Shown here piece by piece: positions 3,912 through 8,749 of a DNA stretch of 64,000 nt. The position numbers and the translations under genes were made by a program. A model generated the notes under the pieces. It was not told the DNA's origin and ran no database searches. It saw only the letters and a list, made by a program, of their open reading frames with translations. Position 1 is the first letter of the stretch. Every line of letters starts with the position of its first letter. Origin of the DNA: an uncultured Clostridia bacterium (GTDB lineage: Bacteria > Bacillota > Clostridia > Christensenellales > UBA1242); NCBI GenBank assembly GCA_934748015.1, contig CAKVHF010000003.1, forward strand, positions 77,743-141,742, in the 5' to 3' direction.

Positions 3912-4282
3912 TATTTATTATCCTCGCTTGATTTCGAATTTTTCTTTTCCTTTCTCTCTTCTACCTCAGTAACAATAATTACATCTGCCTCATTTTCTTC
4001 TTTTTGCTTTCTAGCCTTTGCTTTCTTTGCCTCTTTTCGTTCCTCTTCTTCCTTGGTCTCTTTTCGTTTAGCTATCTTATCTAGCATAACCTCCACCAAG
4101 AATATATACACAAGACCAATTGCGACATCCAGTAGTACATAGCCTATTGTACTAACCAGAAATCCGCATAGCCAGTTAACCAAGATAAGTATAGGAAGCA
4201 GTGTCAACAATATTAGTCCATATTTCAAAAGCAATTTCTTCATTACTCTTTTGTCAAAAATATATCTGTTATCATTATCCAT
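3911..4282 (-). CDS. Small two-TM membrane protein with a Lys/Glu-rich C-terminal tail
   Basis: I moved the start to ATG 4282 (MDNDNRYIF...), which follows GGAGG and overlaps the upstream stop. Two hydrophobic helices are followed by KRKETKEEEERKEAKKAKARKQKEENE. The gene is translationally coupled to dnaB. Confidence 0.5.
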   Translation of the reverse strand: MDNDNRYIFDKRVMKKLLLKYGLILLTLLPILILVNWLCGFLVSTIGYVLLDVAIGLVYIFLVEVMLDKIAKRKETKEEEERKEAKKAKARKQKEENEADVIIVTEVEERKEKKNSKSSEDNK

Positions 4283-5222
4283 TATTATTTTCCTCCTTCT
4301 TAGTCTTAAGGTTGGCATTGCGGATGAACATGTATAATATACTAATTCCTGCAACGGCTAGTCCTATAACATACCACCATACACGTACTGGAGATAGTCT
4401 ATATAGTTCCATCTCTTTGCCGTTTAGATCATTAAGGTTCCACTCATGGACAATATATCCGTTAAGTTCTGGGTCGTTATACACCTTATCCGCATTGGAT
4501 TTAAACCTCTTATCGTTAGTTTCGAAAGACTGGGTTATGTCAATATTGTCTAGCACCTCATCCGATGTATAAGATGTGGAAAGTAGTGAATTAACCCTTG
4601 TGACATAGTAATCTAAGTATTTCTGATCCATTCCCCTATAGATATTGCCAAACTTATCCACAATACTATCACTGCCAAATACCAACTTTTTAGTACACCA
4701 AGCATCCTCTCTTATATCATAATCGCTAGTTACTATATCAGTCATAAACTGTCCATAGTCTTTGATATCAAAGCCCTTGACACCCTCGATATCAACTACA
4801 CCATACTTAGCCAAAATCTCTGGAGTGTTAAGCCCATAGAAATAAATGTAGTACTCAATTGATGTAAATTCTATTATAATACTGAAAGTATATCCATCGG
4901 CACTTGCTCTACGCTCGGTTGTTCGGACAGATATGTTCTCCTTGAATTCTTGTCCCAAATTGATATCCAAAATATACTTGTCACCCATATTGTCATCAAT
5001 CCATTGTGTCACTGCACGATAGTAATTATCAACATCACTCTTGATTGTTCCATACAATGCTTCGCTACTAGAATTGTTAAACATATCTTTGGATAGAGTA
5101 ATATTAACCTCATCAATTATTGAGCCAGACTTGGTGTATATTCTGCGATAATCTATATTGGCACAACCAACCATGGATATGCATGCTATCATTAACACAA
5201 AACTTAGTAATATTTTCTTCAA
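4275..5222 (-). CDS. Putative lipoprotein with a C-terminal TM helix
   Basis: The start is set at TTG 5222, six nt after GAGGGG. The N-terminus is KKILLSFVLMIACISMVGC, a signal peptide plus a lipobox-like MVGC. A C-terminal helix WWYVIGLAVAGISILYMFI is present. There is no recognisable enzymatic motif. Confidence 0.55.
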   Translation of the reverse strand: MKKILLSFVLMIACISMVGCANIDYRRIYTKSGSIIDEVNITLSKDMFNNSSSEALYGTIKSDVDNYYRAVTQWIDDNMGDKYILDINLGQEFKENISVRTTERRASADGYTFSIIIEFTSIEYYIYFYGLNTPEILAKYGVVDIEGVKGFDIKDYGQFMTDIVTSDYDIREDAWCTKKLVFGSDSIVDKFGNIYRGMDQKYLDYYVTRVNSLLSTSYTSDEVLDNIDITQSFETNDKRFKSNADKVYNDPELNGYIVHEWNLNDLNGKEMELYRLSPVRVWWYVIGLAVAGISILYMFIRNANLKTKKEENNNG

Positions 5223-5350
5223 GACACACCCCTCAGTATAAATATATATACTAGTATACAATAATTAAACATAATGCACAATATTTTTTGGGGCACAAAA
5301 TTGTATTTTTTACTAAAATTGTTTCAATAATAAATATGTGCAAAATAAAT

Positions 5351-5379
5351 TTGCAAAAAAAAACAGAATTTAATATAAT
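5351..5379 (+). promoter_or_regulatory. Sigma-A-type promoter TTGCAA-17-TATAAT, predicting a leaderless or near-leaderless mRNA
   Basis: TTGCAA lies at 5351-5356, a 17-nt spacer follows, and TATAAT lies at 5374-5379. The ATG of the next ORF is at 5386, only 6 nt after the -10 element. Confidence 0.55.
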
Positions 5380-5385
5380 GAAAGC

Positions 5386-6180
5386 ATGGAAGATAGATTT
5401 TATAATTACAATAGAAAAAACACCGCTCTTACAATTGAAGAAGAGAGCGAATATCAAATAACTAGTGAACATCTTAAGGATGCAGTGGTCGTCAATAGTA
5501 GTCTGGGTAGCAAATTGGTGATGAGTAACTATAAGAAGGATAAGGAGCACCTAACAAGATACAGCACCCTAGTGCGAAAGAATTTTGGTCACTATGTTGA
5601 AAGCACTAAAATCATCAAAACATATTATGATACTGATGATATGTTTTTTCATAGTGTAGGCATCAATATTTGTGAAACTATTGACAAGAAGCACAAAGAA
5701 AAAGAGATAATTGTTAGATATGATAGCAATGTGGAGAGAATAACTTATCTTAAATTCTTGCCCGATACATATTATCTAAAGGTTAAGACTGGGGATAAGA
5801 TATCTAAACATTTAGACTTTATCGAAAGTGCAATCTTACAACTTATCACCAACGGATTGCAGACCAATGTCATGAACCTACTTAAGACAATCAAGCCTCT
5901 TATCATGGTTAACAAGGATAGAGAGATCTGGAATTACGCCCTACCTAACAAGTTGATAGTTAACTTCAACTTCGATAGATGCGTATACTCTACTACCAAA
6001 AATAGAGATAAATATAAGGTGGATATCCTGGAGATTACTGCTGAAAATAAGCCTAACGAATTCAGTGATGTATACAACAACTTTATCAAAGATCTTATTA
6101 TGGATCTGCCAACACTGATCGAGGCAAAACACAGTGATCTATTTATAGGACTAGACTACCTACTAGACATAAGAAAATAG
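5386..6180 (+). CDS. Hypothetical protein (264 aa)
   Basis: A long ORF follows a strong promoter. There is no SD sequence. Segments IEEESEYQI near the N-terminus and VDILEITAE near the C-terminus faintly recall the acidic strands of CYTH/triphosphate-tunnel proteins, but the canonical ExExK lysine is not evident. Confidence 0.45.
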   Translation: MEDRFYNYNRKNTALTIEEESEYQITSEHLKDAVVVNSSLGSKLVMSNYKKDKEHLTRYSTLVRKNFGHYVESTKIIKTYYDTDDMFFHSVGINICETIDKKHKEKEIIVRYDSNVERITYLKFLPDTYYLKVKTGDKISKHLDFIESAILQLITNGLQTNVMNLLKTIKPLIMVNKDREIWNYALPNKLIVNFNFDRCVYSTTKNRDKYKVDILEITAENKPNEFSDVYNNFIKDLIMDLPTLIEAKHSDLFIGLDYLLDIRK

Positions 6181-6261
6181 TGATGCATGCAGTTAGGTAG
6201 TTTATAACTATCAATGCAATAAATATTAAAACTAAATAAAACTCTATTTAATCAGGTACGA

Positions 6262-7050
6262 ATGGATTGTAGATATGTAAAAAAAATATTACAAAGCTTA
6301 AAAATACACAATAATAGTTTTTACAAAATAATTGAAAAAAATTTTTTATTTTTACTGCAAAATGAAACCATTGAAAAAATAAATTCTATCTACAACGACT
6401 TGTCTTTTCTTGGTTTAGTATTTAATAAATATAGATACGCCCTCTTGTTGTCAATAATAAAAGGTGTATCTGAAAACAAAATAAAAATAATATCAATTTG
6501 TAGCGACGCTCTAACAAAAAATCCAGACATTTTAAGGAAAAAAATCCAGTATTGCAAAATTGAATATTTGTGCAAAATACTAAAATCCTTGTCAAAAAAA
6601 CATGGTATTTCAATTGAATATTTTTGCATTTTACCAAATATTAACCCTTTGTTTAAAGACAAAATATTTGCAACATCTTGGGAAAAAAATAGACAAGAAA
6701 TAGAAAAAATAGGTAAAGTAAAATGCGTTTTATTGACAGATATAGCTTCAAATGATTATTCAAACATTTTGTTAAACTTATCTAGTTATGTGAATTGCAT
6801 AGATTTATGCAAAAAAATAGATTATTATCAAAATAATCTATTTATTACTTTGGGATTTAAGGCGAGCGAAGACTTTCAAAAAAATCAAATTCTAACCTAT
6901 ACTGCTACAGGTATTTTATTGGAGAAACACTTTTCCCACTTTATTTTAATTGACATACAAAAGAAAAACTTTCCATTTGAACAAAAGTTTTACAACTATG
7001 GAAGAAAAGTCTTATTGCCAATAATTTTTTTTGGACAAAATGTTAGATAA
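6262..7050 (+). CDS. Hypothetical protein (262 aa), extremely AT-rich gene
   Basis: The ORF is Lys/Ile/Asn-rich and I recognise no motif. Its 3' end overlaps the convergent gene by 8 nt (7043-7050). Confidence 0.4.
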   Translation: MDCRYVKKILQSLKIHNNSFYKIIEKNFLFLLQNETIEKINSIYNDLSFLGLVFNKYRYALLLSIIKGVSENKIKIISICSDALTKNPDILRKKIQYCKIEYLCKILKSLSKKHGISIEYFCILPNINPLFKDKIFATSWEKNRQEIEKIGKVKCVLLTDIASNDYSNILLNLSSYVNCIDLCKKIDYYQNNLFITLGFKASEDFQKNQILTYTATGILLEKHFSHFILIDIQKKNFPFEQKFYNYGRKVLLPIIFFGQNVR

Positions 7051-7723
7051 CTAACGTCCTAAACAAATGTCTTGAACCGTTTTGTCCCCATTTCGTAACA
7101 TTCCTTCCTGCAGCGAATTTCCAATTATCTAATATTAAAATATCGCCTTTTTTGTAAGATATTAATTTAACTGATTTTTCGCAAATTTCAACGAAGGATT
7201 TTAACGATTTATTATTTGAGTTAAAAACATCTAGCCTGAATCTAAAAAGTTCAATTTCTCCATCAATACAATTAATAAATTTGGCCAATTTATTGTATCC
7301 CATATCCCTATTTAAAGGACAATTGTATTGAACCTCTAGATTCAATAATTCTTTTTTATCATTTTCATTAAGTTTATTAAAAGATGCTAACAGGTCAACT
7401 GATGTTATTTCACCAAATGACATATTATAAACATCTTCTACATATAGAATTTCAAATCGTGGAGGTATTCTCCAATAACTTTTATCTGTATGAAGCGGTA
7501 ATTTCTCCGTTCCAGTCCCGTCGTTTATAAAAATATCGTCACACAATGACTTACCCCTTCCAGATGGAACAATTTCTCCAAAGTTATAACAGAAATTTAT
7601 AAATTGATCCTTTGATATTTTACCTACATTAAAAACTGAGTATCCATTGCTTAAAACCTCAGAATATTTATCTTCTATATCAACTCCTAAATTCTCAATT
7701 TTCTTGAACAATATATGCTGCAT
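7043..7723 (-). CDS. TauD/TfdA-like Fe(II)/2-oxoglutarate dioxygenase-fold protein (226 aa), distal His not conserved
   Basis: KLPLHTDKSYWRIPPRFEILY carries the HxD motif (H78, D80). FGEITSVD stands in the place of GGxTxxxD. The C-terminal GDILILDNWKFAAGR has Ala where the family motif DNxxxxHxR has the second iron-ligand His. Confidence 0.5.
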   Translation of the reverse strand: MQHILFKKIENLGVDIEDKYSEVLSNGYSVFNVGKISKDQFINFCYNFGEIVPSGRGKSLCDDIFINDGTGTEKLPLHTDKSYWRIPPRFEILYVEDVYNMSFGEITSVDLLASFNKLNENDKKELLNLEVQYNCPLNRDMGYNKLAKFINCIDGEIELFRFRLDVFNSNNKSLKSFVEICEKSVKLISYKKGDILILDNWKFAAGRNVTKWGQNGSRHLFRTLVI

Positions 7724-8672
7724 GTTTATTCATCTCCTTTGTTAATATATTTGAATTGTTTTTTAAATCATTATACGTTGGTAAATTTTTAAATATTGGC
7801 AATTCACCCATTCGACACTCATTAAAACTGAAAAATTTTAAACAATAATTATTTTCCAAATGAGTTGGTGGAGGCAAAACAAAATTTGGAATATCACCCA
7901 TTATTCGACCAAACCAATATTGTTTTTTAAACTTAAAGTGAGAAAATCCACCTTTCGCCAATAATGAATAAATAGGATTGTCATAATCAATTCTTAACGG
8001 ATGTTCGCCAGCAATAAAATCATTTTCAATTATCTCTTGCACTATAATATTTTGATTATTATTTAAAATAGAATTGTTGTATTTTGCACTCATTAAATAT
8101 GGAATTGCTCTGCCTCCAATGTTTTTATAATGCTTTAAAAATTTAATTCTTTTTTCATGCTCTTCAGGAGAATCCAATGCTGAAACTGATACTCGTATTT
8201 CAGTATTATTTTTCTTTAACGTTTCCAATATGCTATCACTTGGATATTTATGAATCTTTGTTATTATTAGCATAAAAATATTATACGATGCCAAAATGTT
8301 TGAAATATCGGCAACAAGTTGCCAAGAATCATTTGAAAATGAACAATCTGACACCCACCCTTGTCTTAACCATTTTACATCTTTGGGTAGCTTCCTTAGA
8401 TCAGAAATAAAAATATTTTTATCAAAAATATTGTTATTCCTATTACCAAAATCATAACCTTGCTTTACCCAAAAATCACAAGCAGTACAATTTCCATAAC
8501 ATACATTATCAATAGCGAGACAACCTGAAACCACATCAGTCATTAATGTATTAAATGGAAGTCCACCTGAGACACCGCATCGTATTTTTAAAACAGGCAT
8601 CTCTTTTAATTTGATTTTGTTTGTTTTTTTCTTAGGTAGTTTATAATATTCTCTATAATCTCTGTATTCCAT
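7695..8672 (-). CDS. Radical-SAM-like protein (325 aa)
   Basis: The CxxxCxxC motif is present as NVCYGNCTACDFW. Downstream segments (WLRQGWVSDCS, EIRVSVSALDSPEEHEKRIKFLKHYKNIGGRAIPYLM) resemble the barrel strands of SplB/COG1533-type radical SAM enzymes. The stop overlaps the next gene by 29 nt. No SD sequence is obvious. Confidence 0.45.
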   Translation of the reverse strand: MEYRDYREYYKLPKKKTNKIKLKEMPVLKIRCGVSGGLPFNTLMTDVVSGCLAIDNVCYGNCTACDFWVKQGYDFGNRNNNIFDKNIFISDLRKLPKDVKWLRQGWVSDCSFSNDSWQLVADISNILASYNIFMLIITKIHKYPSDSILETLKKNNTEIRVSVSALDSPEEHEKRIKFLKHYKNIGGRAIPYLMSAKYNNSILNNNQNIIVQEIIENDFIAGEHPLRIDYDNPIYSLLAKGGFSHFKFKKQYWFGRIMGDIPNFVLPPPTHLENNYCLKFFSFNECRMGELPIFKNLPTYNDLKNNSNILTKEMNKHAAYIVQEN

Positions 8673-8719
8673 ATCAATTGAATATTACCATACAAATAAT
8701 TAAAAGGCAATCAATTTCA

Positions 8720-8749
8720 TTGACAATATAATTAAACACATTATATAAT
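8720..8749 (+). promoter_or_regulatory. Sigma-A promoter TTGACA-18-TATAAT for trpS
   Basis: TTGACA lies at 8720-8725 and TATAAT at 8744-8749, about 64 nt upstream of the GTG start. That leaves no room for a T-box leader. Confidence 0.7.

Follow-up and report, generated by a model that had tools for sequence, protein, structure and literature searches.

A rare AT-rich gene cassette combining trpS with a radical-SAM-like protein, a TauD-like protein and a protein with a predicted isonitrile-synthase-like fold in an uncultured Clostridia bacterium and other bacterial lineages

A four-gene AT-rich cassette has been identified at positions 6262–9869 of a 64,000-nt stretch of DNA (hereinafter, the window) from an uncultured Clostridia bacterium (contig CAKVHF010000003.1, positions 77,743 to 141,742). 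It consists of trpS, encoding tryptophanyl-tRNA synthetase (TrpRS), a gene for a 325-aa protein resembling radical S-adenosylmethionine (SAM) enzymes (w325), a gene for a 226-aa TauD-like protein, and a gene for a 262-aa protein with an isonitrile-synthase-like fold (w262). The best explanation of our observations is that these genes constitute one horizontally mobile cassette. It is a small cassette of the biosynthetic type, equipped with an aminoacyl-tRNA synthetase (aaRS) and built from unrecognised enzyme families: neither the w325 nor the w262 family has a Pfam or NCBIfam model, and no description of such a cassette was found in a full-text literature search. Our favoured reading, tentative and held with considerable doubt, is that the cassette produces a small molecule derived from tryptophan and brings along a TrpRS of its own. 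The joint transfer of trpS with three little-known enzymes would indicate a pathway of tryptophan modification, not described so far, in bacteria of the gut and rumen.

A first-pass annotation, made from the sequence alone, had described a compositionally foreign, AT-rich islet of three genes at 6181–8700. The base counts behind this description are exact (8 G+C out of 60 at 6301–6360 and 9 out of 60 at 8041–8100, compared to 27 out of 60 at 1621–1680), and the foreign composition is confirmed at a larger scale. The 6181–8700 segment has 27.1% GC, equal to the minimum over all 2520-nt windows of the stretch (mean 35.8%, sd 2.7), the lowest-GC one starting at 6301. Moreover, when G+C content at third codon positions (GC3) is compared with that of the 35 other open reading frames (ORFs) of the window, all four cassette genes are outliers, with z-scores of –3.7 for w262, –3.5 for the TauD-like gene, –4.6 for w325, and –3.9 for trpS. 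The boundaries have to be shifted, however: as trpS (GC3 0.219) is also aberrant, while a 264-aa ORF at 5386–6180 on the plus strand has ordinary GC3 (z = +1.2), the foreign block spans approximately 6262–9940 and includes trpS. The 264-aa ORF was considered as a possible cassette member and rejected, given its normal GC3 and the absence of homologues at any related locus. Around the islet in the window, neither an integrase nor repeats, direct or inverted, have been found at the flanks.

The arrangement of the first three genes and their overlaps are as originally described. The w262 gene (6262–7050, plus strand) converges on the TauD-like gene (7043–7723, minus strand) with an overlap of 8 nt, and the stop of w325 (7695–8672, minus strand) overlaps the start of the TauD-like gene by 29 nt. 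There is indeed no terminator-like site between the convergent genes and no clear Shine–Dalgarno sequence upstream of w325. A 141-nt spacer (8673–8813) with promoter-like sites separates w325 from the divergently transcribed trpS (8814–9869, plus strand, 351 aa), whose product is identified as tryptophan–tRNA ligase by the TIGR00233 model (226.6 bits, cutoff 176.75) and by the GRLHIGH (HIGH) and KMSKS motifs in its translation. The spacer contains a perfect sigma-70 consensus (TTGACA-18-TATAAT, 12 matches out of 12) at 8720–8749 on the plus strand, a second plus-strand promoter-like site at 8770–8797, with AAAGGAG and then the trpS start codon GTG (8814) downstream of it, and a minus-strand promoter-like site at 8754–8725. 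Riboswitch or leader control of trpS was considered and discarded, with no T-box or any other Rfam family identified in 4000–12000 even at E ≤ 1. Downstream of trpS, a bidirectional terminator-like hairpin (9914–9937; 10-bp stem, 4-nt loop, T-runs on both strands) closes the cassette.

The core of the cassette is the overlapping pair formed by w325 and the TauD-like gene. They are adjacent at every locus where both are present, mostly with overlapping stop and start codons, and the pair is scattered among Firmicutes, gut Alphaproteobacteria, Chitinophaga, Marinobacter, and Patescibacteria. Natural fusions are also observed, both of TauD with w325 (P0066) and of Amidohydro_2 with w325. The w262 gene is found beside the pair at 16 of the 26 distinct loci examined; conversely, at all 16 distinct w262-bearing loci this gene stands next to the TauD-like gene or its operon. 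Such linkage is seen in Firmicutes, gut Alphaproteobacteria, Marinobacter, one Patescibacteria genome, and the loci L021 and L023. The three genes thus keep together across genomes that are otherwise unrelated, rather than occupying this one position with equally low GC in all relatives, each with a well-characterised housekeeping homologue, the outcome that the first-pass annotation had named as contradicting it.

The trpS gene adjoins the cassette at nine distinct loci, whose flanks are mutually unrelated and which show three gene orders. The cassette trpS of the window lies beside tsf, and at L017 the cassette with trpS is located between rsmD and a glycosyltransferase gene. At L019, from a sporulating Firmicute, the four-gene block together with two small ORFs (8774–12530) resides inside the dcw cell-division cluster, between ftsW and murA, the cluster being otherwise canonical. 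trpS also adjoins the cassette at L031, while at L020, L024, and L030 w262 is found downstream of trpS, with overlapping reading frames. At L021 and L023, a single operon comprises trpS, w325, TauD, and w262, the genes being 4–6 nt apart, and the TrpRS encoded there is only 40–43% identical to that of the window. The L023 operon is placed among mnmA, plsC, and alaS, and the L021 cassette is found beside an IS200 transposase. The Marinobacter block is AT-rich relative to its host (39% vs. 56% GC) and is located beside an IS66 element.

The first-pass annotation had regarded trpS as a housekeeping neighbour of the islet. It is in fact a co-transferred member: along with the linkage at nine loci, the linked trpS deviates in GC3 just as much as the enzyme genes do (z = –3.9 in the window, –4.5 at L017, –2.8 at L019, and –5.0 at L023), whereas GC3 is normal (z from –0.7 to 0) in three trpS genes of relatives that are not linked to the cassette (identity 80%, 67%, and 65%), and therefore trpS has moved together with the enzymes. 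A dedicated or suppressor tRNA was looked for close to the cassette at 16 loci and in the window, and none is conserved there.

The w325 family is rare, with 48 clusters among 5.8 billion proteins, 163 representatives identified by profile search among 1.84 billion proteins, and presence in 12 out of 185,579 species genomes. The window protein has no match in Pfam or NCBIfam at E ≤ 1, and likewise none in PADLOC or PHROG. The earlier assignment to radical SAM enzymes, based on the motif CYGNCTAC (CxxxCxxC) and barrel-like strands, is supported by the predicted fold, at modest scores, and not by the motif. CYGNCTAC is present in the window protein, but its third cysteine, C65, is replaced by alanine in most of 26 aligned homologues, and the 33 invariant columns of the alignment include instead C51, C58, and C62, that is, Cx6Cx3C. 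The family thus lacks the conserved CxxxCxxC of the radical SAM superfamily (PF04055), and the three conserved cysteines make a variant cluster site possible.

The AlphaFold2 (AF2) model of w325 (predicted local distance difference test score, pLDDT, 89; predicted template modelling score, pTM, 0.90) resembles a partial triosephosphate isomerase (TIM) barrel, with the three invariant cysteines just before the barrel. Its best matches in two structure libraries are radical SAM enzymes. In PDB these are SkfB, SuiB, MiaB, HydE, and PFL-AE, the matches being modest (E = 1.4e-3, TM-score about 0.38–0.41); among viral protein models (BFVD), named radical SAM/SPASM proteins occupy ranks 1–4 and 6, and the best match has E = 3e-4 and a target-normalised TM-score (TMt) of 0.62. 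Moreover, there is a second tier of relatives, 250–300 aa long and homologous to w325 by hhalign (99.9%), some of which bear the canonical GCxxxCxxCYA motif; sub-threshold Radical_SAM matches are observed in 5 of 40 of them (best E = 0.0029) and DUF5131 matches in 2 of 40. In motif style, the closest branches of the superfamily are the SplB/COG1533-like and DUF5131-like ones. The differences are the Cx6Cx3C spacing, the absence of any curated model at threshold, and TM-scores of about 0.4. Judging by the predicted fold, we describe w325 as radical-SAM-like with a non-canonical cysteine triad, and not as a demonstrated member of the superfamily. At two cyanobacterial loci (L009:9902–12259 and L033:8001–10334) the partner of w325 is a membrane protein of the AbrB family (PF05145), with neither TauD nor w262, and the enzyme may thus have another, distinct use.

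The 226-aa protein is TauD-like, as had been proposed, exceeding the Pfam threshold (PF02668, 39.5 bits with the cutoff of 27, E = 7.7e-10). In profile comparisons its family matches CAS1 (4.9e-7), DfmD, CarC, PvcB (2.8e-4), and BBOX. Across 14 sequences, the residues H78, D80, R207, R218, and R222 do not vary, and hence the protein retains the HxD motif and the arginine binding 2-oxoglutarate (2OG), R218 being aligned with R360 of BBOX1. At the position of the distal iron-binding histidine (H347 of BBOX1, H279 of CAS1), however, it has Ala205. The same His-to-Ala replacement is observed in all six Firmicute and all five gut-alphaproteobacterial copies, while the histidine is present in the copies from Chitinophaga, Marinobacter, Patescibacteria, L021, and L023; among the loci sampled, it is the gut and rumen forms that are His-less.

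The w262 protein, earlier left without any assignment, belongs to no family in Pfam, NCBIfam, PADLOC, or PHROG, and no consistent Pfam match is seen across 20 members of its family. Its AF2 model (pLDDT 84, pTM 0.86) has a Rossmann-based fold resembling that of isonitrile synthases (PvcA/IsnA). Chains of PIsnA or PvcA (PIsnA 9dh4, PvcA 3e59) take all of the first seven places among PDB matches, with probability 1.00, query-normalised TM-score (TMq) 0.46–0.56, 245–271 alignment columns, that is, nearly the full length, and E of about 5e-3; these are followed by TyrRS, a cyclodipeptide synthase (CDPS), and MshC. Characterised isonitrile synthases of the IsnA/PvcA type use L-Trp or L-Tyr as substrates. 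The isoelectric points of the family were also considered and set aside, as they are basic in the TrpRS-linked copies but confounded by AT-richness.

Where trpS is not linked to the cassette, other genes adjoin it in a conserved manner. In gut Alphaproteobacteria a Peptidase_S51 gene is found beside the cassette. In a Patescibacteria metagenome-assembled genome (L015:7893–11600, JBMOJK010000017.1) a gene of the S66 LD-carboxypeptidase family (MccF/LdcA family) is located between w262 and w325, and the cassette genes of this locus are read through only with UGA as a sense codon. All Chitinophaga loci have a divergent SAM methyltransferase beside the cassette, and w262 is dispensable in this genus. 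Further genes of the Marinobacter island are a canonical radical SAM gene, a 62-aa ORF, and a gene for a 551-aa zinc-ribbon protein; an apparent major facilitator superfamily (MFS) exporter does not belong to it, being a NarK nitrate/nitrite transporter with the GC content of the host. The 62-aa ORF (L003:5997–6185, Marinobacter xestospongiae, JAWIIJ010000013.1) is located between the canonical radical SAM gene and the 551-aa gene, in the AT-rich island and operon of the cassette. Its product, with an acidic leader-like body and the end ...VVKAPACW, looks like a precursor of a peptide made on the ribosome and modified after translation (RiPP type). A scan of 22 loci for small ORFs with Trp as the last residue gave no other convincing candidate and nothing conserved.

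Three independent hints link the cassette to tryptophan: the linkage with TrpRS, the IsnA-like fold, known from characterised enzymes that use Trp or Tyr, and the Trp-ending peptide at one locus. The gene linkage, the co-transfer of trpS, the predicted folds, and the residue conservation are observed; what the cassette acts on, by which chemistry, what it yields, and what TrpRS does in it we infer as follows. The w262 protein would bind L-Trp, with the alpha-amino group as the site of modification, in the way IsnA and PvcA do; the translationally coupled pair of w325 and the TauD-like protein, probably forming a complex, would be responsible for another step, radical or oxidative; the output would be a tryptophan-derived small molecule; and the co-travelling TrpRS would sustain charging of Trp-tRNA in the producer, acting as a target-copy self-protection gene.

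Several observations weigh against this scheme. No product or activity is on record for any cassette member. The relation of w262 to IsnA, as judged from the model, is at the level of fold only: PF05141 (DIT1_PvcA) matches none of the 20 w262 family members at E ≤ 10, and hhalign of this family against PvcA and PIsnA (whose sequences were recovered from PDB) yields a score of 14.7, the same as unrelated control alignments. Membership of w262 in the IsnA family at the sequence level was rejected on these grounds. The TauD-like family is nearer to CAS1, DfmD, and CarC than to PvcB in the profile ranking and, as the distal His ligand is missing, oxygenase chemistry is doubtful in the gut and rumen clade; the TauD-like protein of the clade of the window may be not an oxygenase at all. 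The linked TrpRS, in turn, is 80–81% identical to an unlinked one (P0209), and linked copies (P0213, the copy from L031, being one of them) group in the tree together with unlinked ones. No signature residue tells the two kinds apart, and a resistance signature was accordingly discarded; by its sequence, the linked TrpRS is no diverged “resistance” paralogue.

The closest known parallel is provided by the pairs of an isonitrile synthase and a Fe/2OG oxygenase, such as IsnA/IsnB, PvcA/PvcB, and AmbI1-3, where the synthase works with a TauD-family partner. Here too, a protein whose predicted fold comes nearest to PvcA and PIsnA is encoded beside a TauD-family protein; the characterised isn/pvc enzymes use L-Trp or L-Tyr, and the cassette has its tie to TrpRS. 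On the other hand, w262 lacks sequence-level membership by either PF05141 or hhalign and is shorter by about 50–70 residues; for the TauD-like partner, clavaminate and carbapenem synthases are closer matches than PvcB, and in the window its distal His is absent; the constant partner in the cassette is the radical-SAM-like enzyme, with w262 being dispensable in Chitinophaga; and isn/pvc clusters are not known to contain an aaRS.

TrpRS co-transferred with enzymes is a classic signature of an antimetabolite directed at an aaRS. In target-copy clusters (TrpRS of indolmycin and chuangxinmycin, MupM of mupirocin, BorO of borrelidin, and albomycin), as in the present cassette, the aaRS is joined both physically and transcriptionally to enzymes and transferred with them. 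The cassette differs in that its aaRS, by sequence, is not a diverged paralogue and that it has only three enzymes, none resembling known pathways to TrpRS inhibitors. A bolder form of the favoured reading, which we regard as unlikely, would have the cassette make a new tryptophan antimetabolite in human-gut and rumen bacteria, an isonitrile or another N-modified derivative, with TrpRS as its target. It would then employ a hitherto unrecognised Cx6Cx3C branch of radical SAM enzymes in complex with a His-less TauD-fold protein, with TrpRS as the immunity gene, and with S51/S66 peptidases or the methyltransferase in its place in lineages without TrpRS.

An alternative, to which we also give a rather low probability, is a Trp-tRNA-dependent pathway, in which the cassette TrpRS supplies Trp-tRNA(Trp) to w262. 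The latter would transfer Trp to an acceptor (the C-terminus of a peptide or a second amino acid), w325 and TauD would tailor the tryptophan, and a carboxypeptidase or dipeptidase would free the product. The Rossmann fold of w262 resembles the cores of class-Ic aaRSs and cyclodipeptide synthases, as seen from TyrRS, CDPS, and MshC ranking after IsnA, but the match to CDPS is weaker than that to IsnA (TM 0.36–0.42, probability 0.80), and no Pfam match to CDPS is found among 20 w262 members. The overlap of the trpS and w262 genes at L020, L024, and L030 and the S51/S66 peptidase genes adjacent to the cassette in lineages without trpS fit such a pathway, and so does the 62-aa peptide with the C-terminal Trp beside the canonical radical SAM gene in the Marinobacter island, although other loci contain no conserved Trp-ending small ORF. 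Dedicated aaRS genes supplying biosynthesis have precedents, e.g., VlmL of valanimycin; still, no tRNA gene is linked to the cassette, and many cassettes do without a linked TrpRS. The comparison with known enzymes dependent on aminoacyl-tRNA, that is, cyclodipeptide synthases and peptide aminoacyl-tRNA ligase (PEARL) pathways such as that of ammosamide, is similarly divided: the cassette has an aaRS-like Rossmann protein, a link to Trp-tRNA supply, a Trp-ending peptide at one locus, and peptidase neighbours at others, and lacks a CDPS or LanB-type domain and a conserved scaffold peptide.

A housekeeping role, in which the enzymes serve as modifiers of tRNA(Trp) or TrpRS, or else restore or recycle damaged tryptophan, and are co-expressed with the only trpS of the cell, seems to us quite improbable. 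It would fit with the place of the linked TrpRS within the ordinary TrpRS clade of Clostridia/Bacilli, with the perfect trpS promoter of the constitutive type and the absence of a T-box, and with the position of the L023 operon among mnmA, plsC, and alaS; moreover, radical SAM and 2OG-type enzymes are common in RNA modification. However, the family is extremely rare (the 12 species genomes mentioned above), the cassette is patchy and absent from a locus whose trpS is 80% identical, the compositionally foreign block moves across unrelated sites and phyla, and trpS is missing from most non-Firmicute copies.

A defence module had been among the candidate roles listed for the islet. An anti-phage or conflict module, with the enzymes depleting or altering tryptophan or Trp-tRNA and trpS serving as the antidote, would agree with a small, rare, mobile, AT-rich unit with varying neighbours and with the insertion sequences found beside the Marinobacter (IS66) and L021 (IS200) copies. 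We nevertheless consider it very improbable: a PADLOC-DB scan of four proteins yields no matches at E ≤ 1, and a PHROG scan of three cassette proteins nothing of note, no relatives have been found in plasmid, phage, and viral-contig collections, and there are no known defence genes nearby. Finally, that unrelated orphan genes without a joint function merely hitch-hike beside trpS is hardly credible, even with two of the four proteins having no known function, given the adjacency kept in no fewer than four named bacterial phyla and under three different gene orders, the maintained overlaps of reading frames, the natural gene fusion, and the strong residue conservation of w325 (33 invariant columns).

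For both w325 and w262, these results provide a testable context, that is, tryptophan and TrpRS, in addition to fold assignments. If w325 binds a cluster via Cx6Cx3C, it represents a branch of radical SAM enzymes that motif and profile searches miss, and the superfamily may be wider than recognised. The His-less TauD fold would be either a 2OG-oxygenase scaffold reused for oxygen-independent work or a new mode of iron binding. A possible new bioactive metabolite of human-gut and rumen bacteria would be of interest both for antibiotic discovery and for studies of microbiome tryptophan metabolism.

An exact 15-nt direct repeat, TTAGGTAGTTTATAA, is present at 6193–6207, 55 nt upstream of the w262 start, and at 8632–8646, antisense within the first codons of w325; it may be a chance occurrence in AT-rich DNA. 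Between the cassette and dnaB there are two ORFs with no family assignment, one of 328 aa (4275–5261, minus strand), with a lipoprotein-like N-terminus, and the 264-aa one mentioned above, both having homologues at related loci only on contigs of the window's own organism. The alaS gene of the window (minus strand, around 1–2600) encodes an alanyl-tRNA synthetase of only about 601 aa, and that of L023 (7207–8964) is 585 aa long, compared to the usual length of about 870 aa; both appear to be devoid of the C-terminal domain.

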